Shown: positions 28,536 to 44,319, counted from the first letter of the stretch. The stretch: DNA of 64,000 nt from Oscillospiraceae bacterium (GCA_015064345.1 SVSK01000002.1:82-64081), one strand, 5' to 3'. Translations and numbers: made by a program. Notes: generated by a model not told the origin, from the letters alone.

Positions 28536-28635
28536 TCGAATAGCGAAAAAATATTTATTTTGATGTTCCATTTTTCAGAAAGATATGCTATAATTTAGTT
28601 TAGCGACAATAATAACTTATTTTTTGGAGACAATC

Positions 28636-29979
28636 ATGAGAAAACTTATTACTCTGGCACTCCTGATATCATCGCTGCTCTGCCTTGCATTGTCTGTTGA
28701 GGCAACAGTCGGCACAGTCATCTACGGCTACAAAACTAATGAAAAGCCAAACATGGAAAAAATCGACGAATCCTGGGGTGAGCCTGTTATCTACGTTACA
28801 AAGGATACTCCCAATGCCGAGCTTCACAAATACTGGTCTGAAAAAATAGACACCTGCAATTTCTCTCAACCGGGAACTTCCAGACAGCTGATCGAACCCG
28901 AACCCAGTGATTTTTGGCTGTACGTAACCTATGACGAGAAGAATATCTACATAGGTCTCAAATCTCCCGACACCGAGATCAGCGGTAGCGAAGAAACTCA
29001 TCGCGGCGACGGTGCACGTGTGTGGCTACAGCCTCTCGTTACCATGAAAAATCCATATTCGGATTATGGCCTTCCCTCCCATCTCACCGAATACGATCAA
29101 GAGTATTTGGATATGGAATCCTATTACAACTTCTATTGGAATCTCAATATGTATGAAAACGGGGTTGACACACTCTTTGCCGCACACTATGTGTACAATG
29201 TGCAGATCAACTTCCACGACGGATATATGCACGCAACGATTGAGATCCCTAAAATAAACATGGGACTGCAGAAGAACGATGACCCACACGGACTGGAATT
29301 CGGAATATGCGTTATGCGTATCAGCTCACGCTCGGCAAGTGATGAAGGGTACGCGGGCTGGCTGACATGGGGCGCAACTCTCCGAGACTACACCCCTACC
29401 CCAACAAGTGTCAATACGCTGATCCTTCTTGACCCGGCACAGATAGTTCCCGAGACTGACGCTCCCGAGACTGACGCTCCCGAGACTGACGCTCCCGAGA
29501 CTGACACTCCTGAGACCGACGCTCCTGAAACCGATGCTCCCGAGACCGACGCTCCCGAGACTGATGCTCCCGAAACTGACGCTCCCGAGACCGACGCTCC
29601 CGAGACTGACGCTCCCGAGACCGACGCTCCCGAGACTGAAGCTCCTGAGACTGATGCTCCCGAGACTGGTGCTCCCGAGACCGATGCTCCCGAAACTGTT
29701 GCTCCCGAGACTGATGCTCCCGAAACTGTTGCTCCCGAGACTGACGCTCCCGAGACTGACGCTCCCGAGACCGATGCTCCCGAAACTGTTGCTCCCGAGA
29801 CTGACGCTCCCGAAACTGACGCTCCCGAAACTGACGCTCCCGAAACTGACGCTCCCGAAACTGACGCTCCTGCTGAACCTGCCAAGAAGAATAATACCGG
29901 TCTCATAATCGGAATAGTGGCAGCCGTCATAGCAGTTGGTGCAATTGCAGGTGTCGTTATAACAAAGAAAAAGAAATAA
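28636..29979 (+). CDS. Type-I membrane-anchored surface protein: signal peptide, ~250-aa CBM9/DOMON-like domain, (PETDA)28 stalk, C-terminal TM anchor
   Basis: MRKLITLALLISSLLCLALSVEA signal. 28 pentapeptide repeats. C-terminal GLIIGIVAAVIAVGAIAGVVITKKKK. ATG 28636 lies 6 nt after GGAG. Domain assignment is tentative. Confidence 0.6.
   Translation: MRKLITLALLISSLLCLALSVEATVGTVIYGYKTNEKPNMEKIDESWGEPVIYVTKDTPNAELHKYWSEKIDTCNFSQPGTSRQLIEPEPSDFWLYVTYDEKNIYIGLKSPDTEISGSEETHRGDGARVWLQPLVTMKNPYSDYGLPSHLTEYDQEYLDMESYYNFYWNLNMYENGVDTLFAAHYVYNVQINFHDGYMHATIEIPKINMGLQKNDDPHGLEFGICVMRISSRSASDEGYAGWLTWGATLRDYTPTPTSVNTLILLDPAQIVPETDAPETDAPETDAPETDTPETDAPETDAPETDAPETDAPETDAPETDAPETDAPETDAPETEAPETDAPETGAPETDAPETVAPETDAPETVAPETDAPETDAPETDAPETVAPETDAPETDAPETDAPETDAPETDAPAEPAKKNNTGLIIGIVAAVIAVGAIAGVVITKKKK
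29449..29868 (+). repeat. Intragenic tandem repeat, 28 units of 15 bp (consensus CCCGAGACTGACGCT = P-E-T-D-A)
   Basis: Units counted directly. Variants are mostly synonymous (GAG/GAA, ACT/ACC, GAC/GAT), with a few D>V/E/G/T substitutions. Confidence 0.95.
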
Positions 29980-29998
29980 AACTATAAGGAGATATATT

Positions 29999-30985
29999 AT
30001 GAAAAAGATTTTAGCTCTTTCCCTTCTCACTGTTCTCATTTTTGTCTTCGCAATCGCAGCCAACGCCGCTGTCGGAACTGTCGTATACGGTTACAAAACC
30101 AATGAGGTTCCAAATCTCGAGATTATTGATGAAACATGGGGCGAGCCATCAATCTATGTAGATAAGAACTCCCCCAATACCGAGCTCCACAAATACTGGA
30201 CAGAAGAGATCGACACAAGCTACTATGCTCATGGCGGCACAGGCCCCAACGGCAGACAGAACATCAATCCCGAGGAATCCGATTTTTGGATGTATATCCT
30301 GTATGACGACACAAACCTCTACGTTGCTGTAAAATCCCCTGACGTTCTCCCCTCCGGTTGTGATTCTCTTCACAGAGGCGACGGCGTTCATCTGTACATC
30401 CAGCCCCTGTCTGAGATGGCAAACCCTTACAATGACTACGGTATGGCAGACGGACTCACCGAATATGACGATGAATTCCAGGCACTTGAAGAATACTACC
30501 ATTTTTACTGGAATCTTAACAAAACCTGCGACGGTGTTGACAAAATCTATGCCGGTCTCCGCGCAGAAGTTGCAAATATCACCTTCGCTGACGGTTATAT
30601 GCATGCAATACTTTCCGTTCCACTTTCCAATTTCGGACTTGAAGAGGGCGAAGATCTCACAAACTTTGAATTCGGAACAAGCATGATGCGTTGCAGCTCT
30701 CTCAATCTTTATGACGAGGGTTATGCGGGATGGCTTTCATGGGGTGCAACTCTCAGCGAATACACAAAAACTCCCGAAAGCGTGAACACGATCATTCTTC
30801 TGGACGAAGAAAAGATTCCTGTAAAGACAGATGAAGCAGATCAGGAGCCTGAAAACGAGGTGAATAACGGCGATACACCCAAGGCAGAAAAGGACAACAC
30901 TGCTCTTGTAATCGCTATCGTTGCAATCGCTCTCGCAGTTATCGAAGCTGCAGTCATTGTTATCATTGTAAAGACAAAGAAATAA
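29999..30985 (+). CDS. Paralogous type-I membrane-anchored surface protein lacking the long repeat
   Basis: N-terminal domain collinear with the upstream gene (VGTV(I/V)YGYKTNE.PN.E.IDE(S/T)WGEP, LHKYW(S/T)E(K/E)ID, HRGDG, YYNFYWNLN/YYHFYWNLN, EGYAGWL(T/S)WGATL). C-terminal TM followed by KTKK. Confidence 0.6.
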   Translation: MKKILALSLLTVLIFVFAIAANAAVGTVVYGYKTNEVPNLEIIDETWGEPSIYVDKNSPNTELHKYWTEEIDTSYYAHGGTGPNGRQNINPEESDFWMYILYDDTNLYVAVKSPDVLPSGCDSLHRGDGVHLYIQPLSEMANPYNDYGMADGLTEYDDEFQALEEYYHFYWNLNKTCDGVDKIYAGLRAEVANITFADGYMHAILSVPLSNFGLEEGEDLTNFEFGTSMMRCSSLNLYDEGYAGWLSWGATLSEYTKTPESVNTIILLDEEKIPVKTDEADQEPENEVNNGDTPKAEKDNTALVIAIVAIALAVIEAAVIVIIVKTKK

Positions 30986-32386: not shown

Positions 32387-34747
32387 ATGAGCAAGAAAAC
32401 CAAGGCTACATCCGGTGCGGATGAAAGAACCCCATCTCTTCCCCAATACTTTTCTTGGATCAACAGCACAAATGAAGGTTCCACAGAAGAACAGACAGTA
32501 ACTAACCTTGAGTATTTCAAGTGGCTCCATGACACACACGGCATGAAGCTCAAAATATATGCGTGGGACGCTGGTAACCTTGACGGTGCAGGCTACTACG
32601 ACAACCCCAATGAGTCCGAAAGACTTAAGAAGCAGTACCCGAACGGATACAAGCCCTGCGTTGACAAGGCTGCTGAATTCGGATGCCATCTCGGTGTATG
32701 GGGCGGTGCAGACGGCTATGGTGACACTCCCGAAGAGGAAGCAAAGCGCCATGAGCTTCTCGTATCTCTCTGCCGTGACCTCGGCTTTATGCAGTTCAAG
32801 TTTGACGCGGTATGCGGATGGCCCAGAGAAGAAAAGCACCTCATGTTCAAGAAGACCATGGATGAGTGCCGTCAGTACGTTCCCGACCTCATCGTTCTTA
32901 ACCACCGTCTCTGGCTTGGCGAAGGTGAAATCGCTGCGACAACTTATCTTGTAGAAGGTGTTGAGACATACATCGACGTTCACACATTCAATGAGATCTC
33001 CGGGCCTCACCACCGTATGGCACCTCTCACCCGCGCGCTTGTTCCCGGACTGAAGAGACTTGCTGAGGACCACGGTGTGTGCATCTCCTCCTGTATCGAC
33101 TATTTCGAGGACGATCTTATAATTCAGGCGTTCTCCCGCTGTCTCATTCTCGCGCCCGAGATCTACGGTAACCCCTGGCTTATGCGCGACGATGAGCAGG
33201 CAAGACTTGCAAAGATCTACAACATTCACGCAAAGTATGCTGATATTCTCGTGAACGGCATGCCCCTTTCCGAGGAGATATACGGTCGCAACGCTATCTC
33301 CCGCGGTGATGCTGATACACGTCTTATCACATTTGTAAACTCTTCTTGGGAAGCAAAGACTGTAAAGATCAATATTTCCGAAGATATTGCTCTCTCCGAC
33401 TGCGAGGGTAAGGAGTACGTTGTTAAGTATATTCATCCCTACGAAGAGCACATTGCTACCGTTAAGGCCGGAGAAGACGTAATGATCGAGATCGAGCCTG
33501 CACGCGCTGCGCTTATTCTCGTACAGGAAAAGAGCAGATTCGAGAAGGAAGATTTCGTCCTCACAGGATGTAAGTACGAAACCGTTTACGGTCCCGGTGC
33601 TGAAGCAGAAAAGGTTCGTATCTTCAAGGCAAACGGTGCAATCGGCTCCATCGGCAAGAGATCCGTTGACTATGCCGCAATCGTCGGCGACAACACAATC
33701 GCACGTCCTGTGGCACTCGGTACACTCAAAGCCGCTCCCGTTCCCGCAAATATCGAACAGCTTTACGAAGCGACCTGCTTTGCGGCTGACTGCGATTCTC
33801 TCGAATATCAGTCTCTCAAGCGTTCGGGCGAAACAAAGATTAGAGAGGTTAAGGCTGCCCGTGATGCATTCTTCGCACAGGAGTCCTACATTTTCCGCGG
33901 AACTGAATCAAGAGCAATGTTTGACGGCAATCCCGACACATTCTTTGACACCGACTCCAAGTACAGAAAGACAAGACTGGGCGGCGGCTGTCTCCGTGTG
34001 GATCTTGGCGATGCTTATGACATCAGCCGCGTTGAAATTGAAACTTTCGCTGTAAACGAAGCAGATCCTCAGCTTCAGGAGGCACATTTCGAGCCTATGG
34101 CACAGGTTTCTCTTGATCTTGCAGACTGGACTGATGCTCCTCTTCTCGGCGTAGCTGAAGCAGATGAGTTAAGCAAAATCCCCACAATTCTCGACTTCTG
34201 CCACCTGACAAATTATCGTGAAGGCAAGAGATGCGTTGCTACTTACACAGTAAACGCAAAGGCACGCTACTTCCGTCTGCCCGATCCCATGGACAGAATC
34301 TTCTCCTTCACCGCTTACGATAAGGACGGCAATAAAATCAATCTCACCGCGCCTCATGCAAACAACATGCTCGCGCCTTACGCAAAGACAGGATTCACCT
34401 CCGCTCGTTCTCTCAAGGTAACTCTTCCCGAAAGCTACTCCGATGGTGCGTACATCGCTGTCGGTACAGACGGTATCCACGGAGTTGAAGGTGTTTACTG
34501 TGCACTTGAGATCAACGGTGTGCCTGTTGGCGCATATGACCGTGCTTGCAGCTACCCCTTCAACAACTGGGAATATATTGCACCCAGTCCCGAGTCAGGT
34601 TTCACCTACTACTTCCGCCTCACTCCCGAAATGAAGGGCAAGGAGATCACTCTCCACGCATTCTACAAGGAAGACTGCCAGGTAGTTACAAAGGCGTGGG
34701 TATGTGACTCCAACTTCAAAAAACCCATTGCTGAGCTGAATATATAA
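32387..34747 (+). CDS. Hypothetical 786-aa cytoplasmic protein: N-terminal glycosidase-like region plus F5/8 type C (discoidin)-like domain
   Basis: No signal peptide. ..FDGNPDTFFDTDSKYRKTRLGGGCLRVDLGDAYDISRVEIE.. resembles a discoidin/CBM32 core. N-terminal ..LKIYAWDAG.. and ..MQFKFDAVCG.. are loosely reminiscent of TIM-barrel glycosidases. ATG lies 6 nt after GGAGG. Confidence 0.45.
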   Translation: MSKKTKATSGADERTPSLPQYFSWINSTNEGSTEEQTVTNLEYFKWLHDTHGMKLKIYAWDAGNLDGAGYYDNPNESERLKKQYPNGYKPCVDKAAEFGCHLGVWGGADGYGDTPEEEAKRHELLVSLCRDLGFMQFKFDAVCGWPREEKHLMFKKTMDECRQYVPDLIVLNHRLWLGEGEIAATTYLVEGVETYIDVHTFNEISGPHHRMAPLTRALVPGLKRLAEDHGVCISSCIDYFEDDLIIQAFSRCLILAPEIYGNPWLMRDDEQARLAKIYNIHAKYADILVNGMPLSEEIYGRNAISRGDADTRLITFVNSSWEAKTVKINISEDIALSDCEGKEYVVKYIHPYEEHIATVKAGEDVMIEIEPARAALILVQEKSRFEKEDFVLTGCKYETVYGPGAEAEKVRIFKANGAIGSIGKRSVDYAAIVGDNTIARPVALGTLKAAPVPANIEQLYEATCFAADCDSLEYQSLKRSGETKIREVKAARDAFFAQESYIFRGTESRAMFDGNPDTFFDTDSKYRKTRLGGGCLRVDLGDAYDISRVEIETFAVNEADPQLQEAHFEPMAQVSLDLADWTDAPLLGVAEADELSKIPTILDFCHLTNYREGKRCVATYTVNAKARYFRLPDPMDRIFSFTAYDKDGNKINLTAPHANNMLAPYAKTGFTSARSLKVTLPESYSDGAYIAVGTDGIHGVEGVYCALEINGVPVGAYDRACSYPFNNWEYIAPSPESGFTYYFRLTPEMKGKEITLHAFYKEDCQVVTKAWVCDSNFKKPIAELNI

Positions 34748-34812: not shown

Positions 34813-36609
34813 ATGAATCTCGGATTCAAACTGTTTTTTACCGATAAAACCGAACACGTCTCACTCGCATCTCTCAGCGGAGAAACTATAGGTAATACTA
34901 CTGTTTACAAAACAACAGTAAACGGCGCCCGTGTAACATGGACGTTTGAGCACATAGTTGCCGGTGACATTATCTCACTTGATGTTAAAGGAGACGCTCC
35001 CCTCGGTATCTCACGCATCGACAGCATCGTTTTTGATGTGGATTCTTTCTCTGTAACCGATCGCATTCCTTTCTTTGGCACAAACGCCGACCACACCGAG
35101 ACAAGATATCCCTGCGAGCTTGTAGAAGACACCCCATATACCAACACAGCAACAGGGCTGTTTCCTACTCTTGTGTCAAACGGCATAGCGCTTGCCCTCG
35201 TACCACCTTTTAATAACGTAGCAGTTACAGGTGCGGTCAGACACGGAAATGCTCTGACTTATTTTGCCAAGACCTTATTCACAGAGGACGCTTTAAGCTA
35301 TACAAAACTCTCTGCAGAGCGTGTATTCTACTCGGAAAACATCTCAATCGACGGGCTCTTTGATGTTTGCGAGTCGTGTCTTCCTGTGAGCAGCTTTCCC
35401 ATGCCAAAACTGGTTGGCTGGAACTCCTGGGACTACTATGAGCAGAGCGTGACACCTGACGATATTTACGAAAATGTGGATTTTCTGAAGAATTGCTCCT
35501 TTAAGGATCATGTAAAGTACATAGTTATCGACGACGGCTGGCAGCATGACTGGGGAGACTGGTGGGCAAACGACAAGTTCTCCTGCGGTCTTGATCATGT
35601 TGCAAGGCGCATAACTGAGGCAGGTTTTGTTCCGGGTATCTGGATGGCTCCTCTCAGAATACGCAAAACCGCAGACATGTTTAAGGATCACATGCATTGG
35701 TTCTGCAAGGATGACAATGCCCCCGACGGTGTAATGTCATTTGGAGACATGTATTGCGTTGACCCGACAGTTCCCGAGGCAAGACAGTATATTCTTGACA
35801 CCTACGAAAAGCTGTACGGCTATGGCTATAGGCTGTTTAAGATCGACTTCCTTATTCAAGTTGTTTGCGCCAAGAAATTCTATGATACTACTGCCACTCC
35901 ATACTCCGTGCTCAGCGAATTGATGATTGACATCAGAAAAGCCACGGGAGAGGATGCAATTATTCTCGGATGCTCTCTGCCCGTTCAGTGCGGCGCGGAT
36001 ATTGCACAGTCAATGCGCAGCGGCGTTGATATTCATGTACACTTCCCTCATGTTGTCTGGGCTACAGAATCCCTTGCATGGACTTGGATGTACAACGATC
36101 GCGTAACAAGAATTGACCCCGACTTCCTCGTTGTTCGCGGTGAGGAAACTTCAAATGACAAGTGGGAACGGAACGAAAAGTACCTGCTTCACGGAAGACG
36201 GGGAGATCCCGGTGGATTCAGCTTGGATATCAGATGGGCTAACGGCGACCGATTCAACGCCATTGAAGCGGAGACATGGGCTAATATAGTTGCCATAAGC
36301 GGTGGAAACGTATTCCTATCCGACAAGATGACAACTCTTAACGAGAAAGGTATCTCCATTATCGAAAACGCGCTGAAGGTAGCCCAGAACGGATGCCGTC
36401 CCATGTATCTTGAGGATGATATCAGACTTCCCTCCGTATGGAAAGGTGAAACTGCTGTACTTATCTTAAACTGGGAGGAAATTCCAGTGAAGAAGACCGT
36501 GAAAGGTCTCGGCAAATCGCTCACATCCGACAAGCCTATTTCGGTAAGCGGTGAGGACGTGACAGTTTCACTTCTGCCCCACGAGAGTATAGTAATTTTT
36601 GTAAAATAA
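34813..36609 (+). CDS. Clan GH-D alpha-galactosidase-like glycoside hydrolase (GH27/GH36-like)
   Basis: GWNSWDYY, IVIDDGWQ, RLFKIDFL blocks. No signal peptide. ATG lies 5 nt after GGAGG. Confidence 0.7.
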   Translation: MNLGFKLFFTDKTEHVSLASLSGETIGNTTVYKTTVNGARVTWTFEHIVAGDIISLDVKGDAPLGISRIDSIVFDVDSFSVTDRIPFFGTNADHTETRYPCELVEDTPYTNTATGLFPTLVSNGIALALVPPFNNVAVTGAVRHGNALTYFAKTLFTEDALSYTKLSAERVFYSENISIDGLFDVCESCLPVSSFPMPKLVGWNSWDYYEQSVTPDDIYENVDFLKNCSFKDHVKYIVIDDGWQHDWGDWWANDKFSCGLDHVARRITEAGFVPGIWMAPLRIRKTADMFKDHMHWFCKDDNAPDGVMSFGDMYCVDPTVPEARQYILDTYEKLYGYGYRLFKIDFLIQVVCAKKFYDTTATPYSVLSELMIDIRKATGEDAIILGCSLPVQCGADIAQSMRSGVDIHVHFPHVVWATESLAWTWMYNDRVTRIDPDFLVVRGEETSNDKWERNEKYLLHGRRGDPGGFSLDIRWANGDRFNAIEAETWANIVAISGGNVFLSDKMTTLNEKGISIIENALKVAQNGCRPMYLEDDIRLPSVWKGETAVLILNWEEIPVKKTVKGLGKSLTSDKPISVSGEDVTVSLLPHESIVIFVK

Positions 36610-36614
36610 TACAG

Positions 36615-36646
36615 AAGCCAAGGGATAATCTCCTTTGGCTTTTTGT
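36615..36646 (+). terminator. Terminator after the alpha-galactosidase-like gene
   Basis: AGCCAAGGG pairs with CCTTTGGCT (36632-36640), one mismatch, followed by a T run. Confidence 0.65.
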
Positions 36647-36669
36647 TTTCCTAATATTCTCCAATTAGA

Positions 36670-36698
36670 TTGACTTTCCCACTCAATGGTGCTATAAT
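36670..36698 (+). promoter_or_regulatory. Consensus promoter of the MFS transporter gene
   Basis: TTGACT (36670-36675), 17-nt spacer ending in TGc, TATAAT (36693-36698). Confidence 0.6.
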
Positions 36699-36733
36699 TA
36701 CGATTGTTGCAAGATACCCCCTCGGAGGTTACT

Positions 36734-37990
36734 ATGGAAAAAACTATCAGCAAAAATGCAAAGATAATCACGCTCTTGTGCACATTAGTCTATTTTGCAA
36801 GCTATCTCACAAGAATCAATTTTGCCGTTATGCTCGTTAAGATCTGCGCTGACATGAATGCCGCAAAAACGGAAATGGCAGTTGTTGTTACGGGACTTAC
36901 CATCGTTTACGGTGTAGGTCAGGTCATCAGCGGCTTCCTTGGCGACAAGATAAAACCCCGCTATATGCTATCCGCGGGTCTATCACTTGCATCCGTATGC
37001 AACGTGCTGATTTTCTTCACCGCAAGTATTCCTGTAATGACCGTGATCTGGTGTGTTAACGGATTTGCGCAGTCCATGCTGTGGCCGCCTATCGTCAGAA
37101 TTATGTCTACATATCTGGCTGACCACGAATACAGCTATGCCGCTGTGCGCGTTTCTTGGGGATCTTCAATTGCAACGATCATACTTTACACCTGCTGCCC
37201 TCTTCTGCTCGGATTTATGGACTGGCGAAGCATAATGCTGATTTGTGCCGCTGTTGCCATTGCAATCATGATCGCGTGGACAACTCTCAGCCCGAAATAC
37301 CTTGTTTCAACAGGTTCTGTTGCTGTATCCGATAATAAATCTGACAGTAAAGCAGAAACAAAAGCAGCGACACTTCCCGTGCCGAAATTTGTTTTCCTGC
37401 CTATTGTTCTTATTATGCTCGGCATCATCCTCCAGGGTACACTCCGTGACGGCGTAACAAACTGGATGCCCTCTTACCTGTGTGAGACATTCGGTCTGCC
37501 CGAGGAGGAGTCCATAATCTCAACGGTAATTCAGGCAGTATTCAGCATACTCAGCTTCTGGTGCTTCGATTTCCTCCATCGCAAGGTATTCAAGAATGAG
37601 GTTACCTGCGCGTCGGTAATTTTCGGTGCATCGGCAATCTGTGCGGCTGCGCTGTATTTGGTAAACGTGTACACATCCTCTGCGGCGGTTTCACTCATTC
37701 TCATGGCTGTTATCATTGCGTGTATGCACGGCATCAACCTTATGCTCATCTCAGTAGTACCCAAGCGCTTCCTCAAAAGCGGCAAGGTTGCTACATACTC
37801 GGGTATTCTCAACGCCTGCACGTATATCGGTGCATCCATTGCCACATATGGCTTTGCGGCAATCGCTGAAAACCACGGATGGAACGCAACTATCCTCACT
37901 TGGATAATCATCTCTGCGGCCGGTCTTGCAGTTTGCTTTGCTGCTGCACCGCTGTGGAAAAAATTCCGCAAGGAATATGCAGATAAATAA
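36734..37990 (+). CDS. MFS transporter (12 TM)
   Basis: Polytopic. G..GDKIKPR loop after TM2 is typical of MFS. ATG 36734 lies 4 nt after GGAGG and downstream of the promoter, so track start 36704 is rejected. Confidence 0.8.
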   Translation: MEKTISKNAKIITLLCTLVYFASYLTRINFAVMLVKICADMNAAKTEMAVVVTGLTIVYGVGQVISGFLGDKIKPRYMLSAGLSLASVCNVLIFFTASIPVMTVIWCVNGFAQSMLWPPIVRIMSTYLADHEYSYAAVRVSWGSSIATIILYTCCPLLLGFMDWRSIMLICAAVAIAIMIAWTTLSPKYLVSTGSVAVSDNKSDSKAETKAATLPVPKFVFLPIVLIMLGIILQGTLRDGVTNWMPSYLCETFGLPEEESIISTVIQAVFSILSFWCFDFLHRKVFKNEVTCASVIFGASAICAAALYLVNVYTSSAAVSLILMAVIIACMHGINLMLISVVPKRFLKSGKVATYSGILNACTYIGASIATYGFAAIAENHGWNATILTWIIISAAGLAVCFAAAPLWKKFRKEYADK

Positions 37991-37996
37991 AACACA

Positions 37997-38023
37997 GGGC
38001 GTATTTTCGGATGCGTCCTTTTG
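37997..38023 (+). terminator. Terminator after the MFS gene
   Basis: GGGCGTAT (37997-38004) pairs with ATGCGTCC (38011-38018), two G-U, followed by T4. Confidence 0.5.
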
Positions 38024-38038
38024 CTTTGCAACTTTTAA

Positions 38039-38067
38039 TTGACAATCCACTATTCTAATGGTATAAT
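38039..38067 (+). promoter_or_regulatory. Consensus promoter of the MFS-GH2 fusion gene
   Basis: TTGACA (38039-38044), 17-nt spacer ending in TGg, TATAAT (38062-38067). Confidence 0.65.
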
Positions 38068-38103
38068 TATTTAGTAATGTTGTAATTTTATACGAGGTGA
38101 ATA

Positions 38104-41091
38104 ATGAAGACAAAGCTTTCGTGGAAATTCTGGTGCGCACTTACGGTATTCGGACTCATGGGTCAGATCGCGTGGGTTGTGGAGAACATGTACCTCAACG
38201 TGTTTATCTACAAAATGTTCAACGCATCTGCCTCTGACATTTCCGCTATGGTTGCGGCAAGTGCCATAGCGGCTACGCTGACAACGATCCTAATCGGTGC
38301 TCTGTCAGACAGAGTCGGCAAACGTAAGCTTTTTATATGCGGCGGTTATATCCTTTGGGGTGTGTCAATATTCGCCTTTTCCCTGCTTCGTGCGGATGTA
38401 ATCGGTGCAGTGTTCCCTCTCACAGTCTCTGTGGCTGCTGTAGGTGTTACTCTTACAATAATTCTCGACTGTCTCATGACATTCTTCGGTTCAAGCGCCA
38501 ATGATGCGGCTTTCAACGCATGGCTCACCGACAGCACTGACAATACAAATCGCGGCGCTGCTGAGGGTATTAACGCAATGATGCCTCTCGTGGCTATTCT
38601 CGCTGTATTCGGCGGATTCATGGGGTTTGACCTTGATAAAAGCGAAAGCTGGACCGCGATATTCTCAATCATCGGTATCTGCACACTCATAATCGGTATT
38701 ATCGGTTTCTTCATCATCGAAGAAAAATGTACAGTTCCCTCTGAAACAGGTTACTGGAAAAACGTAATTTACGGTTTCCGTCCCTCTACTGTGCGCTCTA
38801 ACAAGTCTTTCTACTTCTACCTCATAGCCTTTGTTATCTTCAACATCGCAATTCAGATATTCATGCCGTACCTCATCATATACTACGAGGTATCACTCAA
38901 AATGGCTGATTACGTGTTCGTCATGGCGCCGGCAATTATTCTTGCATCCGTTGTGACCGCGTTCTGGGGACGTTTTTACGATAAAAAGGGATTTAACAAG
39001 TCGTCATTCTGGTCCCTGCTTTGGCTTGGTGTGGGATTCGTGCTTCTGTATGTTTTCCGATCAACCGCTCTTGTTTTTGTCGGATCGCTCCTCATGATGT
39101 GCGGATATCTCTCCGGCATGGCAGTTTTCGGCGCAAAGATCCGTGATCTGACCCCCCATGGTAAAGCCGGAATGCTCCAAGGTGTGCGTATCTTCTCGCA
39201 GGTACTTCTGCCCGGTGTCATCGGTCCGTACATCGGCAAGGCTGTTCTTGCAAATGCCGAAACTATAGTAAATAACGACGGAACAACATCCTTTGTTCCA
39301 AGTGCAAATATATTCCTTGCCGCACTTATCGTAATAGTCATTCTTGCAGTTGTTCTTGTAATTGCAGGGAGTAAAAAAAAACCGAAAACCGTTAGTCTCG
39401 ATTCCTGCTTCCCGGGCGAAGATGAAATAGACTGGACTACATATCCCCGCCCGCAGATGAAGCGTGATTCTTACCTTTCCCTGTGCGGCAAATGGCATCT
39501 TTCGGTTATCAACAATGGTGAGATTCAGGCTGTTGGCGAGATCGAAGTTCCTTTTTCTCCCGAAACCGTGCTCTCAGGCATAGGTCGATCTCTTAAAAAA
39601 GGAGAAACGTGGCTTTACGAGAAAACATTTACCTTTGGGGACGGATTTAACCGAGGTCGCGTAATTCTTCACTTCGGTGCGGTGGATCAGATTGCTGTTG
39701 TTTCGGTAAACGGTCATAGACTTACCGAGCACGTAGGCGGTTATCTTCCTTTTGAATTTGATATTACCGAGTACATTACAGACGGCGAGAATACTGTAAC
39801 AGTTGAAGTTACCGATGAGCTTGACCGAGAGCTGGCGTATGGCAAACAGCGCAAGGATCGCGGCGGTATGTGGTACACCCCCATAAGCGGTATCTGGCAG
39901 GCTGTGTGGCTTGAAAGTGTGCCGATGGAATATATCTCATCTCTGCGACTTACACCTACCCTTGACAGCATAACCATAGAAGTTTCAGGCGCAGTGGGAG
40001 AGAAATCCGTTAGGATCACAACTCCTGTTGGTGAGATCAGCCAGGTGTTCGAGGGAGACAGTATTACCATCTCAATTCCTGACCAAAGGCTGTGGACGCC
40101 CGAAGATCCTTATCTTTACAGCTTCACCTTAACCGCGGGTGAGGACAAAATCGAGTCCTACTTCGCACTTCGTACCGTTTCCGTTGAGCTGGAAGGAAAA
40201 TATATTGCGTTAAACGGCAAGCCCTATTTCTTCCACGGTCTGCTTGACCAAGGATACTACAGCGACGGAATATATACCCCAAAAACTCCCGCGGGTTTTC
40301 TTTATGACATCCGAAAAATGAAGGAATGTGGCTTCAATATGCTCCGCGAGCATATCAAGATCGAGCCTGAGCTGTTCTATTATTACTGTGACAAGCTCGG
40401 CATGATCGTTTTCCAGGACATGGTCAACTCCGGAAAGTACAGCTTCTTTGTTGATACAGCGCTTCCCACTATCGGAATCAGACGCGGCATCACGCATAAA
40501 GCGAGTAAACGTCGCCGTGAAGCTTTTGAGGCTGACAGCAGAGAGACTGTTGACCTTCTCTACAACCATCCATCCGTGTGCTACTACACCATCTTCAACG
40601 AGGGCTGGGGCCAGTATGACGCTGACAGAATCTACGGTGAACTAAAGGCATACGATCCCTCCCGTATCTGGGATGCCACATCTGGTTGGTGGAGTGAGAA
40701 GCTGAGCGACGTTCAAAGTGAGCACATCTATTTTAAGAAGCTCGACTTGAAGTCTGACGGTAAGCATCCTCTCGTTTTATCCGAGTTTGGCGGATATTCC
40801 TGCAAGATAGAGGGTCACTCTTTCAATCTTGACAAGACATACGGCTACCGATTCTTCAGTAAAACAGCCGATTTTGAGGCGGCACTTCACAAGCTGTATC
40901 TTGAAGAGGTCATACCAATGATAGATCGCGGACTGTGCTGTACGGTGCTGACTCAGGTAAGCGACGTTGAGGATGAAACAAACGGTCTTCTCACTTATGA
41001 CCGAAAAATACTGAAAGTGAATGCCGATGAAATGAAAAAGATCGGCCAAAATATCAATGACGCATTTATTTCAAAAATACATAATACATAA
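38104..41091 (+). CDS. Fusion protein: GPH/MFS-type glycoside transporter (aa 1-~420, 12 TM) plus glycoside hydrolase family 2 enzyme (aa ~445-995)
   Basis: 12 hydrophobic spans and GALSDRVGKRK loop. GH2 blocks YPRPQMKRDSY, WYTPISGIWQAVWLE, NMLREHIK, FNEGWGQ (Glu at 40600-40602), LVLSEFGG (Glu at 40783-40785). Confidence 0.8.
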   Translation: MKTKLSWKFWCALTVFGLMGQIAWVVENMYLNVFIYKMFNASASDISAMVAASAIAATLTTILIGALSDRVGKRKLFICGGYILWGVSIFAFSLLRADVIGAVFPLTVSVAAVGVTLTIILDCLMTFFGSSANDAAFNAWLTDSTDNTNRGAAEGINAMMPLVAILAVFGGFMGFDLDKSESWTAIFSIIGICTLIIGIIGFFIIEEKCTVPSETGYWKNVIYGFRPSTVRSNKSFYFYLIAFVIFNIAIQIFMPYLIIYYEVSLKMADYVFVMAPAIILASVVTAFWGRFYDKKGFNKSSFWSLLWLGVGFVLLYVFRSTALVFVGSLLMMCGYLSGMAVFGAKIRDLTPHGKAGMLQGVRIFSQVLLPGVIGPYIGKAVLANAETIVNNDGTTSFVPSANIFLAALIVIVILAVVLVIAGSKKKPKTVSLDSCFPGEDEIDWTTYPRPQMKRDSYLSLCGKWHLSVINNGEIQAVGEIEVPFSPETVLSGIGRSLKKGETWLYEKTFTFGDGFNRGRVILHFGAVDQIAVVSVNGHRLTEHVGGYLPFEFDITEYITDGENTVTVEVTDELDRELAYGKQRKDRGGMWYTPISGIWQAVWLESVPMEYISSLRLTPTLDSITIEVSGAVGEKSVRITTPVGEISQVFEGDSITISIPDQRLWTPEDPYLYSFTLTAGEDKIESYFALRTVSVELEGKYIALNGKPYFFHGLLDQGYYSDGIYTPKTPAGFLYDIRKMKECGFNMLREHIKIEPELFYYYCDKLGMIVFQDMVNSGKYSFFVDTALPTIGIRRGITHKASKRRREAFEADSRETVDLLYNHPSVCYYTIFNEGWGQYDADRIYGELKAYDPSRIWDATSGWWSEKLSDVQSEHIYFKKLDLKSDGKHPLVLSEFGGYSCKIEGHSFNLDKTYGYRFFSKTADFEAALHKLYLEEVIPMIDRGLCCTVLTQVSDVEDETNGLLTYDRKILKVNADEMKKIGQNINDAFISKIHNT

Positions 41092-41103: not shown

Positions 41104-42387
41104 ATGGGACTTATCAAGACAGCAATCAACTCAGTTAAAGGCACTCTTGCAGACCAGTGGAAAGAGTATTTCTACTGCGAATCAATGGACAACGAGACTC
41201 TTATCACACGTGGTATCAAACAGGCAGGCGGCAAAAAAGGTAGCGATAATGTGATTTCTGCCGGTTCCGGTATCGTTGTTGCAGACGGTCAGTGCATGAT
41301 CATCGTTGATCAGGGTAAGATCGTTGAAGTTTGCGCAGAACCCGGTCAGTTCACTTATGACTCATCCTCAGAACCCAGCATTTTCACAGGCAGTCTCGGC
41401 GAATCCGTTGGCGACGTTCTTAAGAATATGTGGACACGATTCACATACGGCGGCGCAACAGGTAAGGATCAGAGAGTATACTACTTCAACACCAAGGAAA
41501 TAATTGACAACAAGTTCGGTACACCTACCCCCATTCCCTTCCGCGTTGTTGACAGAAACATCGGTCTGGATATCGACGTATCCGTTCGTTGCTCCGGTAT
41601 CTATTCATTCAAGATCACAAATCCCATACTGTTCTACACAAACGTATGCGGTAACGTAGTACGTGAATATAATGTAAGTGACATCGAATCTCAGCTTAAG
41701 GCGGAATTTATCAGTGCACTTCAGCCTGCGTTCGGCACACTTTCCGCAAACGGACTCCGTCCCAGTGATCTCCCCGCACACACAATGGAGCTTGCCGATG
41801 CAATGAATGAAGCACTCTCAAAGAAGTGGAACGAGCTGCGCGGTCTCTCCGTTGTATCAGTTGCGCTTAACCCCATTTCTCTTCCCGAGGAAGATGCGGA
41901 GCTTATCAAGACTGCACAGCGTGCTGCAATCCTTCGCGATCCTTCAATGGCGGCTGCTACTCTTGTCGGCGCTCAGGCTGATGCAATGAAGGCTGCGGCT
42001 GAAAATAAGGGCGGCGCAATAAACGGATTCATGGGTCTGAACATGGCAGCAAATGCGGGCGGTGCTGACACACAGTCACTTTTCGCTATGGCTCAGCAGA
42101 AGAAGGAAGATGTTGCTCCTGCAGTCGACGGTTGGAAGTGTGCTTGCGGTAGTGTTAATACAGGCAAGTTCTGCACCAATTGCGGTGAGAAGAAGCCGGA
42201 GGACGGTTGGAAATGCGCTTGCGGCAGCGTAAACAAAGGTAAATTCTGCTCCGAATGCGGCGCAAAGAAGCCTGCTGACGCTCCTCTCTACCGTTGCGAC
42301 AAATGCGGTTGGCAGCCCGAAGATCCCGCAAATCCCCCGAAGTTCTGCCCCGAATGCGGTGATCGTTTCGACGAAAACGACAGATAA
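41104..42387 (+). CDS. SPFH/band-7-type protein of the 'virion core protein-like' (YdjI/COG4260) type with three C-terminal zinc ribbons
   Basis: MGLIKTAINSVKGTLADQW..VISAGSGIVVADGQCMIIVDQGKIVE.. N terminus. C-terminal WKCACGSVNTGKFCTNCG, WKCACGSVNKGKFCSECG, YRCDKCGW..KFCPECG. Starts 12 nt after the GH2 stop with AGGAG. Confidence 0.65.
   Translation: MGLIKTAINSVKGTLADQWKEYFYCESMDNETLITRGIKQAGGKKGSDNVISAGSGIVVADGQCMIIVDQGKIVEVCAEPGQFTYDSSSEPSIFTGSLGESVGDVLKNMWTRFTYGGATGKDQRVYYFNTKEIIDNKFGTPTPIPFRVVDRNIGLDIDVSVRCSGIYSFKITNPILFYTNVCGNVVREYNVSDIESQLKAEFISALQPAFGTLSANGLRPSDLPAHTMELADAMNEALSKKWNELRGLSVVSVALNPISLPEEDAELIKTAQRAAILRDPSMAAATLVGAQADAMKAAAENKGGAINGFMGLNMAANAGGADTQSLFAMAQQKKEDVAPAVDGWKCACGSVNTGKFCTNCGEKKPEDGWKCACGSVNKGKFCSECGAKKPADAPLYRCDKCGWQPEDPANPPKFCPECGDRFDENDR
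42127..42276 (+). repeat. 2 x 75-bp tandem duplication encoding two zinc-ribbon units (a third, degenerate unit follows)
   Basis: DGWKCACGSVN(T/K)GKFC(T/S)(N/E)CG(E/A)KKP(E/A) units at 42127-42201 and 42202-42276. Confidence 0.85.
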
Positions 42388-42425
42388 CGCATCAGCTCAA
42401 AAATTCCCCGAAAGGAGTGAATCAT

Positions 42426-43520
42426 TTGACAGCATTGCTTGAATACAAATGCCCGTGTTGCGGCGGCGCAATTGAGTTTGACGCGGGCTCGCAAAATCTG
42501 AAATGTCCCTACTGCGATACCGAGTTTGATATTGACACCTTAAAAAGCTACGGTACGGTTCTCGAAAAAGACCGCGAGGATTCATTCGACTGGAGTAAAT
42601 CAAAAGGAAGTGAGTGGACTGAAGACGAAACACTGGGCATGATCGTCTACTCATGCAAGTCCTGCGGCGGCGAGATCATTGGAGACAACACCACAGCCGC
42701 TACCTCCTGTCCGTTCTGCGGCAATCCTGTCGTTCTGACCGGTCAGTTATCCGGAGCACTGAAGCCTGATCTTGTACTTCCCTTCAAGCTGGATAAGAAC
42801 GCGGCCAAGGAAGGTCTGATGCGTCATATTTCAAAAAAGCCCCTTTTGCCAAAGGTATTTAAGGATCAGAACCATATTGACGAAATCAAAGGAATTTACG
42901 TTCCGTTTTGGCTTTTCGATGCCGATGTAAAGGCTTCCGTCAGATTTAAGGCAACCCGACTCCGTTCTTGGAGTGATATGAAGTACAACTACACCGAAAC
43001 TCAGTACTATTCAGTAGTGCGCGGAGGCTCTGTCTCATTTGAGAATGTGCCTGCAGACGGCTCTACAAAAATGCCGGATGATCTGATGCAGTCCATTGAG
43101 CCTTTTGATATTTCCTCTGCGGTGGACTTCAAAACAGCATATCTTGCGGGATTTTTTGCTGACAAATACGACGTTTCCGCCGATGACTGCATCGAAATTG
43201 CTAATGACAGGATCAAGAAAAGCACATCCGACGCGTTTGCTGACACGGTTGACGGATATGCTTCAGTCACACCCGAAAGCAGCACAATAAATCTTACCGG
43301 AAAAGGCACGAGATATGCTTTGCTTCCCGTGTGGATACTTAACACAACCTGGAACGGCAATAAATACACCTTTGCAATGAACGGTCAGACCGGAAAATTC
43401 GTGGGAAACCTTCCCATTGACAAAAAGGCGGCTCTTCGCTGGGCTATCAGTCTCACACCCGTCTGCACAGTTGCAGTTTACCTAATAAGTCTGCTGCTTC
43501 GTGCAATGGGACTTATTTAA
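42426..43520 (+). CDS. Zinc-ribbon membrane protein (YdjG-like)
   Basis: N-terminal CPCCGG..CPYCD and CKSCGG..CPFCGN ribbons. Single C-terminal TM (ISLTPVCTVAVYLISLLLRAMGLI). TTG 42426 lies 9 nt after AGGAG; track GTG 42417 overlaps the RBS. Confidence 0.55.
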   Translation: MTALLEYKCPCCGGAIEFDAGSQNLKCPYCDTEFDIDTLKSYGTVLEKDREDSFDWSKSKGSEWTEDETLGMIVYSCKSCGGEIIGDNTTAATSCPFCGNPVVLTGQLSGALKPDLVLPFKLDKNAAKEGLMRHISKKPLLPKVFKDQNHIDEIKGIYVPFWLFDADVKASVRFKATRLRSWSDMKYNYTETQYYSVVRGGSVSFENVPADGSTKMPDDLMQSIEPFDISSAVDFKTAYLAGFFADKYDVSADDCIEIANDRIKKSTSDAFADTVDGYASVTPESSTINLTGKGTRYALLPVWILNTTWNGNKYTFAMNGQTGKFVGNLPIDKKAALRWAISLTPVCTVAVYLISLLLRAMGLI

Positions 43521-43530
43521 GGAGGGCGGC

Positions 43531-44319
43531 ATGAGAAAAGTTTACATATATCTCGTTATGCTCATCTGCCTCACTCTCGTGATTCCGACTGTATGCACTG
43601 CTACAGCGTACAACCAGCCGGACTACGTTACCGACAATGCGGGTGTGCTTACAAAAGGTGAAATATCGTCTCTTTGCGTAAAGCTTGAAGAGATAAGCGA
43701 CCGACATTCTGTCAGCGTTGCTGTATTTATTACAGACGACATGGTTGATCCCGATAGCGGAAGAGAATTTACCGATATTGATGAGTACGCCGAGTATCTT
43801 TTCGACAATTACAGCTACGGTTACGGCGAAACTGACGACGGAATTCTGTTCGTTATTTCACTTGGTGGCCGTGATTGGTGTGTTTTTGCAGCAGGATACG
43901 GTGACACCGTGATGAACAGTCGCGGTTTTGATCAAGTTGAGAATGAAATAATACCCTACCTTAGCGACGGTGAATACTATAGAGCCTTTTCCCACTTTGG
44001 TGATGTCTGTGACGAGCTTATTACGGATTCTTACGGTTCATCGGTAACATCCGGCAAATGGATTCTCACCTGCTTTATCGTTGGTCTTGTGATCTCAATC
44101 ATCACAGTTGGTATTATGGCATCAATGAATAAGTCAGTTCGATACGGAGTCTCTGCTAACAGCTACATCGTAAACGGAAGCTTCTCACTTACGGAAAAGC
44201 AGGATATTTTCCTCTACCGAAACGTAATGAGAACACCGCGGCAGACTTCGGAAAGCAGTAGAGGCAGTCGTTCCGGTGGCAGCTCAAGCGGAAGAAGCAG
44301 CAGAAGCGGAAAATTCTAA
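43531..44319 (+). CDS. TPM-domain protein with signal peptide, C-terminal TM and Gly/Ser/Arg tail (YgcG/YdjH-like)
   Basis: YVTDNAGVLTKGEISSLCVKLEEISDRHSVSVAVFITDD is a typical TPM start. TM WILTCFIVGLVISIITVGIMA. Tail RGSRSGGSSSGRSSRSGKF. ATG 43531 lies 5 nt after AAGGAGGG. Confidence 0.65.
   Translation: MRKVYIYLVMLICLTLVIPTVCTATAYNQPDYVTDNAGVLTKGEISSLCVKLEEISDRHSVSVAVFITDDMVDPDSGREFTDIDEYAEYLFDNYSYGYGETDDGILFVISLGGRDWCVFAAGYGDTVMNSRGFDQVENEIIPYLSDGEYYRAFSHFGDVCDELITDSYGSSVTSGKWILTCFIVGLVISIITVGIMASMNKSVRYGVSANSYIVNGSFSLTEKQDIFLYRNVMRTPRQTSESSRGSRSGGSSSGRSSRSGKF

Follow-up and report, generated by a model that had tools for sequence, protein, structure and literature searches.

Can a sugar transporter and a glycosidase acting on the transported molecule be made as one natural polypeptide? 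This question was raised by a locus in a 64,000-nucleotide stretch of an Oscillospiraceae bacterium (GCA_015064345.1 SVSK01000002.1:82-64081; the whole stretch is called the window below), in which a single open reading frame (ORF) joins a transporter of the major facilitator superfamily (MFS) to an enzyme of glycoside hydrolase family 2 (GH2). Here, we describe the architecture of this MFS-GH2 fusion, its predicted topology, its intact catalytic and −1 subsite residues, the conservation of its two halves, and the distribution of fused, split and stand-alone relatives. We consider it probable that the protein is an "import and cleave" module, in which the MFS half imports a galactofuranoside and the tethered cytoplasmic GH2 domain hydrolyses it.

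A single reading frame spans both domains

A preliminary description of the window had placed a 995-codon ORF behind a consensus promoter, and our analysis confirmed both features (Table 1). The promoter-like site is a consensus match only, in a region whose total number of matches equalled the shuffle expectation, and it was the sole perfect promoter consensus in the scanned region. The encoded protein is 100% identical to a protein already in the databases (P0001). Pfam searches assigned residues 30-375 to MFS_1 (PF07690; 92.2 bits against a cut-off of 33.4, 4e-26) and detected GH2_N (502-607), the GH2 Ig-like domain (637-690) and GH2_C (694-874), all above the curated cut-offs and in the jellyroll, Ig and TIM-barrel order of GH2 enzymes. 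A transporter and a complete GH2 enzyme thus share one ORF, as had been claimed. A separate GH2 gene had been considered unsupported, in agreement with our finding that no stop codon, ATG or Shine-Dalgarno (SD) sequence occurs between transmembrane helix 12 (TM12) and the YPRPQM block.

Table 1. Positions of the fusion gene, its upstream signals and its encoded domains in the window
Feature	Position	Strand	Remarks
Terminator-like hairpin	37996..38019	+	10-bp stem, then T-run; 5′ boundary of the unit
Sigma-70-type promoter-like site, TTGACA-17-TATAAT	38039..38067	+	12/12 matches; extended -10 TG
Shine-Dalgarno sequence GAGGTG	38094..38099	+	4 nt 5′ of the ATG; read directly from the sequence
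MFS-GH2 fusion ORF	38104..41091, stop included	+	Single frame, 995 codons, ATG start
MFS_1 transporter domain, residues 1-424, 12 TM	38104..39375	+	Pfam 4e-26; AlphaFold2 helices
MFS motif A, G65ALSDRVGKRK75	38296..38328	+	Cytoplasmic TM2-TM3 loop; seen in the sequence
A9 homopolymer in the linker, Lys codons	39373..39381	+	Indel-prone site; not conserved in the family
Inter-domain linker, residues 425-447 (KKPKTVSLDSCFPGEDEIDWTTY)	39376..39444	+	Coil of ~23 residues, low pLDDT; Lys-rich after TM12
GH2_N jellyroll ("sugar-binding"), residues 448-610	39445..39933	+	Includes K581 and Y591; Pfam PF02837, 3e-15
GH2 Ig-like domain, residues 611-695	39934..40188	+	Pfam PF00703, 3e-5; beta-strands in the model
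GH2 TIM-barrel catalytic domain, residues 696-995	40189..41088	+	Pfam GH2_C PF02836; Foldseek
E833 acid/base codon, NE motif	40600..40602	+	Aligns with ORF1110 E464
E894 nucleophile codon, LSEFGG	40783..40785	+	Aligns with ORF1110 E530

Distribution and conservation of the fused form

A search covering approximately 5.8 billion proteins recovered more than 120 clusters of 990-1030 aa that carry both domains, at 67-100% identity. When genomes were scanned with one representative per species, a relative was encoded in at least 556 of them, and the best 80 loci, which matched over residues 1 to ~990, were taken for classification by tblastn with each half and by stop-to-stop ORF tracing. One continuous ORF was present at 74 of these loci and a split version at six. 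The hosts of the 80 loci were Oscillospiraceae, Acutalibacteraceae, Lachnospiraceae and unclassified Clostridia/Eubacteriales, represented mostly by metagenome-assembled genomes from the gut of ruminants and other animals. The preliminary description had allowed for homologues that always occur as two genes; this proved false, as fused forms dominate and split and stand-alone forms occur beside them. A search with the MFS half alone omitted P0001 and other fused homologues from its best 120 matches, where they were expected to score at least equally; the omission presumably arose from candidate selection, and the fused-to-unfused ratio in that list is unreliable.

Among 40 fused homologues, the MFS half showed 75% mean pairwise identity with 152 invariant columns and the TIM barrel 70.5% with 104 invariant columns. 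The linker reached only 47%, with widely varying sequences and A-runs of 0-8 in relatives. Conserved MFS and TIM domains separated by a variable linker form the pattern expected of two functional domains on a tether, and the invariant columns indicate that both halves are under constraint.

The continuous ORF could in principle be an assembly or sequencing artefact, in which an indel in the A9 run joined two genes, as the preliminary description had itself considered. Errors are frequent in A9 homopolymers, and some species do carry the pair in a genuinely split form. Nevertheless, the window linker aligned in frame with the family consensus KKPRLxxLxTPFE, and the same frame through TM12, linker and YPRPQ was unbroken at the 74 continuous loci, across diverse linkers and A-runs. 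Because these loci keep the same frame, a window-specific indel was excluded as the cause; an artefact appears effectively refuted for the family, and we regard it as hardly credible for the window gene. Programmed or transcriptional slippage at the A9 run, which would yield MFS-only and fused products, was also considered and rejected as a family feature on account of the variable A-runs.

The transporter half and its predicted topology

The AlphaFold2 model of the fusion, built with 40 homologues (mean pLDDT, 81.5), contained twelve helices in two bundles, the first comprising residues 7-39, 43-71, 74-94, 110-143, 150-172 and 180-204 and the second residues 234-264, 270-295, 297-317, 321-349, 356-382 and 402-424. 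A cytoplasmic loop with short helices (205-233) connects the two six-helix bundles, and a beta-hairpin is formed within the TM11-TM12 loop. With these boundaries, the loops contain 11 Lys and Arg residues on the predicted inside and 4 on the outside, and the sequence KKKPK follows TM12 directly. The model supports an N-in/C-in topology, by which the GH2 domain is predicted to be cytoplasmic. The 12-TM fold with a cytoplasmic C-terminus, as described previously, therefore held up as a prediction, as did the reading of GALSDRVGKRK as an MFS motif: it corresponds to motif A, whose G65, D69, G72 and R74 were invariant in the 40 homologues. The previous assignment to the GPH family was not confirmed, since the window protein matched MFS_1 only and gave no match to PF13347 at E ≤ 0.01. 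Some homologues matched this MFS_2/GPH profile weakly, with 21-34 bits around the 27-bit cut-off; by these profile scores, the fusion should not be filed as GPH.

A furanosidase-type GH2 domain

In the PDB sequence search with the GH2 part, 7sf2 (BACCELL_01794; 1e-101) and ORF1110 (9j6n/9j6m; 2e-93) ranked first, followed by 7xyr (GH2_19; 1e-52), with glucuronidases, LacZ and other GH2 enzymes at 1e-26 or weaker. Foldseek on the model gave the same ranking (TMt of 0.86 for 7sf2 and 0.82-0.84 for 9j6m/n, then 0.76, then 0.73 or less). BACCELL_01794 is the closest solved relative and is itself uncharacterised; the closest characterised relative is ORF1110, a β-D-galactofuranosidase of Streptomyces sp. 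JHA19, and both share the three-domain GH2 fold of the fusion. The corresponding subfamilies, GH2_18 (9J6M) and GH2_19 (7XYR), together constitute "group III", in which β-D-galactofuranosidase and α-L-arabinofuranosidase activities are known and a Thr takes the place of the stacking Trp of other GH2 enzymes (PMC12243196). β-Glucuronidase, the top NCBIfam match, was rejected, as it scored 111 bits against a cut-off of 544 and was far weaker than the furanosidase-group matches. On this evidence, the GH2 part is placed in furanosidase group III (GH2_18/19) and is not of the LacZ or GUS type. The E-values favour GH2_18, and a cytoplasmic location is more typical of GH2_19.

The active site is consistent with this assignment. 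The catalytic pair of ORF1110 is E464/E530, and its ligands of the galactofuranose (Galf) ring are N463 for O2, H401 and K212 for O3, Y551 and E594 for O5, and K212, Y228 and E594 for O6 (PMC11627007). Mapped through a HMMER alignment, the −1 subsite residues K212, Y228, H401, N463, E464, E530, Y551 and E594 correspond to K581, Y591, H750, N832, E833, E894, Y915 and E958 of the fusion, and all eight, both catalytic Glu residues and the six others, are identical. The preliminary description had thus located the two Glu codons correctly, and its concern that a proper alignment might reveal their absence was not substantiated: the eight residues and T950 were invariant in 40 of 40 fused homologues, and the eight were kept together in 139 of 146 clade representatives. 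T950 aligns with a Thr in 7sf2 and ORF1110, and its equivalence to the group III Thr at the stacking-Trp position is read from alignments, not from structural superposition. The GH2 enzyme is complete and probably active, and the residue matches suggest that it is most likely a β-D-galactofuranosidase and not a generic β-galactosidase or glucuronidase.

Members of the same GH2 clade were also found fused to other enzymes. A galactokinase lies N-terminal to the glycosidase in P0143 and P0243 and C-terminal in P0125, and the additional part is a GDSL esterase in P0124 and a GH127 C-terminal domain in P0244; all of these proteins keep the KYHNEEYE active-site signature. Joining a glycosidase to a galactokinase is meaningful only if the glycosidase is cytoplasmic and releases galactose, and free Galf ring-opens to the pyranose form. 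The galactokinase fusions therefore support both a cytoplasmic location and a galactoside (Galf) substrate, while being compatible with arabinofuranosidase activity in some clade members. Such glycosidase-kinase fusions also appear to be undescribed.

The same architecture and logic could instead serve an α-L-arabinofuranoside (Araf), for instance plant cell-wall arabino-oligosaccharides, or another furanoside. Both α-L-arabinofuranosidases and β-D-galactofuranosidases belong to group III (PMC12243196), the host bacteria, Clostridia of the ruminant and animal hindgut, live on plant fibre, and the additional domain of P0244 belongs to GH127, a β-L-arabinofuranosidase family. The active-site signature is moreover nearly clade-wide and perhaps non-discriminating. 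However, the residues that bind O5 and O6 of Galf (K212, Y228 and E594 in ORF1110) are invariant, and Araf lacks the C6 hydroxymethyl group that they bind; the three independent galactokinase fusions likewise point to galactose as the product. We consider an arabinofuranoside or other furanoside possible but not likely, and continue below with a galactofuranoside as the preferred substrate.

Split relatives and the origin of the fusion

The six split loci all contained one in-frame stop adjoining an ATG. At four of them (L022, L048, L063 and L067), a single in-frame TAA is followed by an ATG 0-2 codons later, and SD-like purine-rich strings (AAGGAGG, GAAGGA) lie within the Lys-rich tail past TM12; the stop is TGA at the other two (L068 and L072). 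A further lineage (L087-L090) has an MFS gene of 435-436 aa and a GH2 gene of 580-581 aa. The junction of L087 reads GAGGAGG-N5-TAATG, with overlapping stop and start, and the gene calls of L088-L090 likewise abut or overlap. The separate GH2 protein of L087 begins with a sequence (MANKKQPRLCALKTPFED) homologous to the fused linker consensus. The TAA-ATG junctions with their SD-like strings, together with the coupled junction and linker-homologous GH2 N-terminus of this lineage, indicate that the fused gene arose by read-through of a translationally coupled MFS-GH2 pair; a single point mutation or 1-nt shift separates the two. The fused form has become dominant in Oscillospiraceae, Acutalibacteraceae and Lachnospiraceae.

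On a broader scale, 11 of the best 150 GH2-part representatives at 50% identity were MFS-GH2 fusions, and their MFS halves were clearly homologous (1e-88 to 1e-203 for the full-length ones). Fused members were interspersed with unfused ones in a neighbor-joining tree of 146 GH2 domains, which, as a distance method without support values, is too crude for counting fusion and fission events. A single ancient fusion was rejected, since the fused members did not form one clade in this tree. The pattern is consistent with fused and split forms that interconvert through repeated fusion and fission.

The ease of such interconversion brings up the possibility that the functional state is two proteins, produced by cleavage of the chain in the variable linker or through an additional GH2-only product. 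The linker shows little conservation and is predicted to lack order, and the easy exchange between split and fused forms suggests that covalent linkage is not essential. On the other hand, no internal start with a ribosome-binding site was present in the window gene, and the predominance of the fused form among the 80 loci suggests that the linkage is selectively maintained. We judge a two-protein state to be very unlikely and retain the single polypeptide as the functional form.

Two members of the GH2 clade (P0126 and P0133) have N-terminal multi-TM domains of 350-385 aa, rich in I, N, K and F, that HMMER did not recognise as MFS and that are joined to GH2 by a linker resembling the "TPF/Y-E-K" motif; these domains possibly represent transporter halves of low-GC hosts that are strongly diverged or in decay. 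At another locus (L086, 7291-9300), a close homologue of the MFS half (77% identical) is followed, without an intergenic gap, by a 669-aa protein with a weak NlpC/P60 match and no GH2 domain, so that the same transporter subfamily may pair with different enzymes.

Proposed import and cleavage of a galactofuranoside

In the function that we propose, one polypeptide would combine a 12-TM MFS transporter, a Lys-rich linker and a cytoplasmic retaining GH2 domain of the furanosidase group. The MFS half would import a small glycoside that stems from gut glycans of microbial or fungal origin, most probably a β-D-galactofuranoside or a short oligosaccharide capped with Galf; this sugar is made by microbes and fungi but not by mammals (PMC12290620). 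The tethered GH2 domain would cleave the imported glycoside at the inner face of the membrane, and the galactose released would enter the Leloir pathway, encoded elsewhere. The benefits of the fusion would be a fixed 1:1 stoichiometry, co-localisation and metabolic trapping. Coupled uptake and hydrolysis, substrate channelling and 1:1 stoichiometry had been put forward in the preliminary description, and it is reasonable to expect them of such a protein; as parts of this proposal, we infer the direction of import, the identity of the substrate and any kinetic channelling. The characterised galactofuranosidases ORF1110 and ORF0643 carry signal peptides, and the fusion suggests that abundant, uncultured gut Firmicutes break down galactofuranosides in the cytoplasm.

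Several observations weigh against this proposal. Sequence identity to the galactofuranosidase ORF1110 is only ~33-40%. The eight −1 subsite residues, common to most of the clade, may not separate Galf from Araf, because group III also contains α-L-arabinofuranosidases and the residues are nearly clade-wide. Searches with the MFS half gave no PDB sequence match at E ≤ 1 and only sub-threshold NCBIfam matches, to both efflux-type and symporter-type MFS families, so that neither substrate nor transport direction can be inferred from this half; by these comparisons, it appears to represent a transporter subfamily without a solved or characterised relative. Close MFS homologues (75-79% identical) occur alone at two loci (L083 and L091), and the peptide upstream of the closest unfused GH2 representative (P0122; 56% identical), on contigs of only ~2 kb, is not an MFS tail. 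Physical coupling of MFS and GH2 is thus not obligatory. Moreover, no Leloir or Galf-related genes were found beside the fusion gene in the window or in the flanks of its relatives.

With a transport direction that cannot be read from sequence and weak NCBIfam matches of both types, the MFS half might alternatively export a product, such as one of transglycosylation, or serve mainly as a membrane tether or sensor, and an anchor role is conceivable for P0126 and P0133, whose N-termini are no longer MFS-like. The conservation data speak for a working transporter, since no other part of the protein is as conserved as the MFS half, whose invariant columns include motif A and the buried charged residues D122, D134, D143, R150 and E154. 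Close homologues also persist as stand-alone transporters, and an MFS gene followed by a translationally coupled glycosidase gene resembles the arrangement in catabolic permease/glycosidase operons of the lacY/lacZ and melB/melA type. Export or anchoring is accordingly an improbable role in our estimation, and uptake is the direction that we favour.

The proposed uptake and cleavage could also be linked more tightly, as a hydrolysis-coupled uptake machine in which the GH2 active site is docked at the cytoplasmic mouth of the MFS half, a glycosidase analogue of group translocation. The substrate would then be handed from carrier to enzyme, and irreversible hydrolysis would make transport vectorial, possibly without ion coupling. 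We consider this version unlikely; if true, the predominance of the fused form would reflect selection for channelling.

Comparison with known systems

Compared with ORF1110, which is secreted by means of a signal peptide and carries a C-terminal AbfB/CBM42-like domain, the fusion has neither element, and its enzyme is joined to a transporter at the cytoplasmic end. ORF1110 was predicted to be a monomer by PISA (PMC11627007). The nearest functional parallel is found in lacY-lacZ pairs, in which one glycoside is handled first by an MFS permease and then by a cytoplasmic GH2 enzyme, as proposed for the fusion. The split relatives form just such a permease-then-glycosidase pair, translationally coupled. 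LacZ is a five-domain tetramer, in contrast to the three-domain furanosidase-type GH2 of the fusion, and the MFS half is not LacY-like, having no sequence relative in the PDB. Hybrid LacY'-'LacZ proteins exist as laboratory constructs, whereas the fusion is naturally one polypeptide.

Other transporters carry or cooperate with cytoplasmic domains. The GPH lactose transporter LacS is, like the fusion, a 12-TM sugar carrier with a cytoplasmic domain past TM12, but that domain is regulatory (PTS IIA-like) and the one described here catalytic, and the fusion falls below the GPH PF13347 profile. LplT-Aas, an adjacent gene pair, consists of an MFS lysophospholipid flippase and an acyltransferase (PMC11416262). 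As proposed for the fusion, an MFS protein is coupled to an enzyme that acts on the molecule it transports, at the cytoplasmic face; the pair differs in its lipid substrate, enzyme class and membrane-repair role, and its homology to the fusion is confined to the MFS superfamily. LplT and Aas are fused in some bacteria. The phosphotransferase system (PTS) resembles the proposed function in that uptake is tied to immediate sugar chemistry by a permease-fused domain, trapping the substrate. It differs in that phosphoryl transfer is obligatory for transport and the permease is not MFS, the chemistry of the fusion being hydrolysis.

No description of a natural MFS or permease-glycosidase fusion was found in the full-text literature searched, including that on galactofuranoside uptake; with incomplete coverage, the negative outcome amounts to no more than absence of evidence. 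A survey of GH2 subfamilies from 2025 dropped TM-containing proteins from its secretion-signal analysis and does not mention an MFS-GH2 fusion (PMC12243196). The sequences are already in databases, where public records name the fused proteins simply "MFS transporter", which constitutes a systematic annotation gap, and the architecture appears to be uncharacterised. It presents the textbook two-gene logic of permease and glycosidase as one chain, with the fused form prevailing across hundreds of Clostridia species from gut and rumen. This makes it a natural system for asking whether carrier-enzyme coupling gives channelling, metabolic trapping or stoichiometric control, with built-in controls among close relatives, some of which are split into coupled pairs while others exist as stand-alone halves.

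Genomic context of the fusion gene

With its own promoter-like site after a terminator-like hairpin that closes the preceding, unrelated MFS gene, the fusion gene appears to behave as a self-contained unit. When the flanks of the 80 loci were clustered all against all, no neighbour was present at more than nine of them, and a conserved operon or regulon with Leloir genes, glf or regulators was accordingly rejected. The upstream genes of the window, a GH36/melibiase-like protein and a 786-aa protein without family assignment, and the downstream SPFH, zinc-ribbon and TPM genes are not conserved partners.

Directly 5′ of the fusion lie two genes on the same strand. The 598-aa GH36-like protein encoded by the first (34813-36609) gave no more than weak matches to melibiase/GH36 (2e-8), and the second encodes an MFS_1 transporter of 428 aa (36704-37990) that by sequence comparison is unrelated to the fused MFS half and has a near-consensus promoter of its own (36670-36698, 11/12). 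This pair (34813-37990) may form a second, unfused glycosidase/permease module. Downstream, a three-gene cluster (41104-44319, plus strand) encodes SPFH/Band-7, zinc-ribbon and TPM-domain proteins in that order. The SPFH/Band-7 protein, which has several C-terminal CxxC zinc-ribbon repeats, starts 13 nt past the fusion stop, and the terminator scan detected no terminator between the two genes; the zinc-ribbon protein has a hydrophobic C-terminal end.

Further upstream, three plus-strand ORFs of 786, 451 and 328 aa (32387-34747, 28624-29979 and 29999-30985, respectively) matched no Pfam family at E ≤ 0.001, the 786-aa ORF giving only a faint F5/8-type-C/galactose-binding-like match. An 862-aa protein (21287-23875, plus strand) is an unusual fusion in its own right: an EF-G/Tet(M)-like translational GTPase (GTP_EFTU and EFG domains III, IV and C) is extended at its C-terminus (residues 715-855) by a YacP-like NYN nuclease domain.

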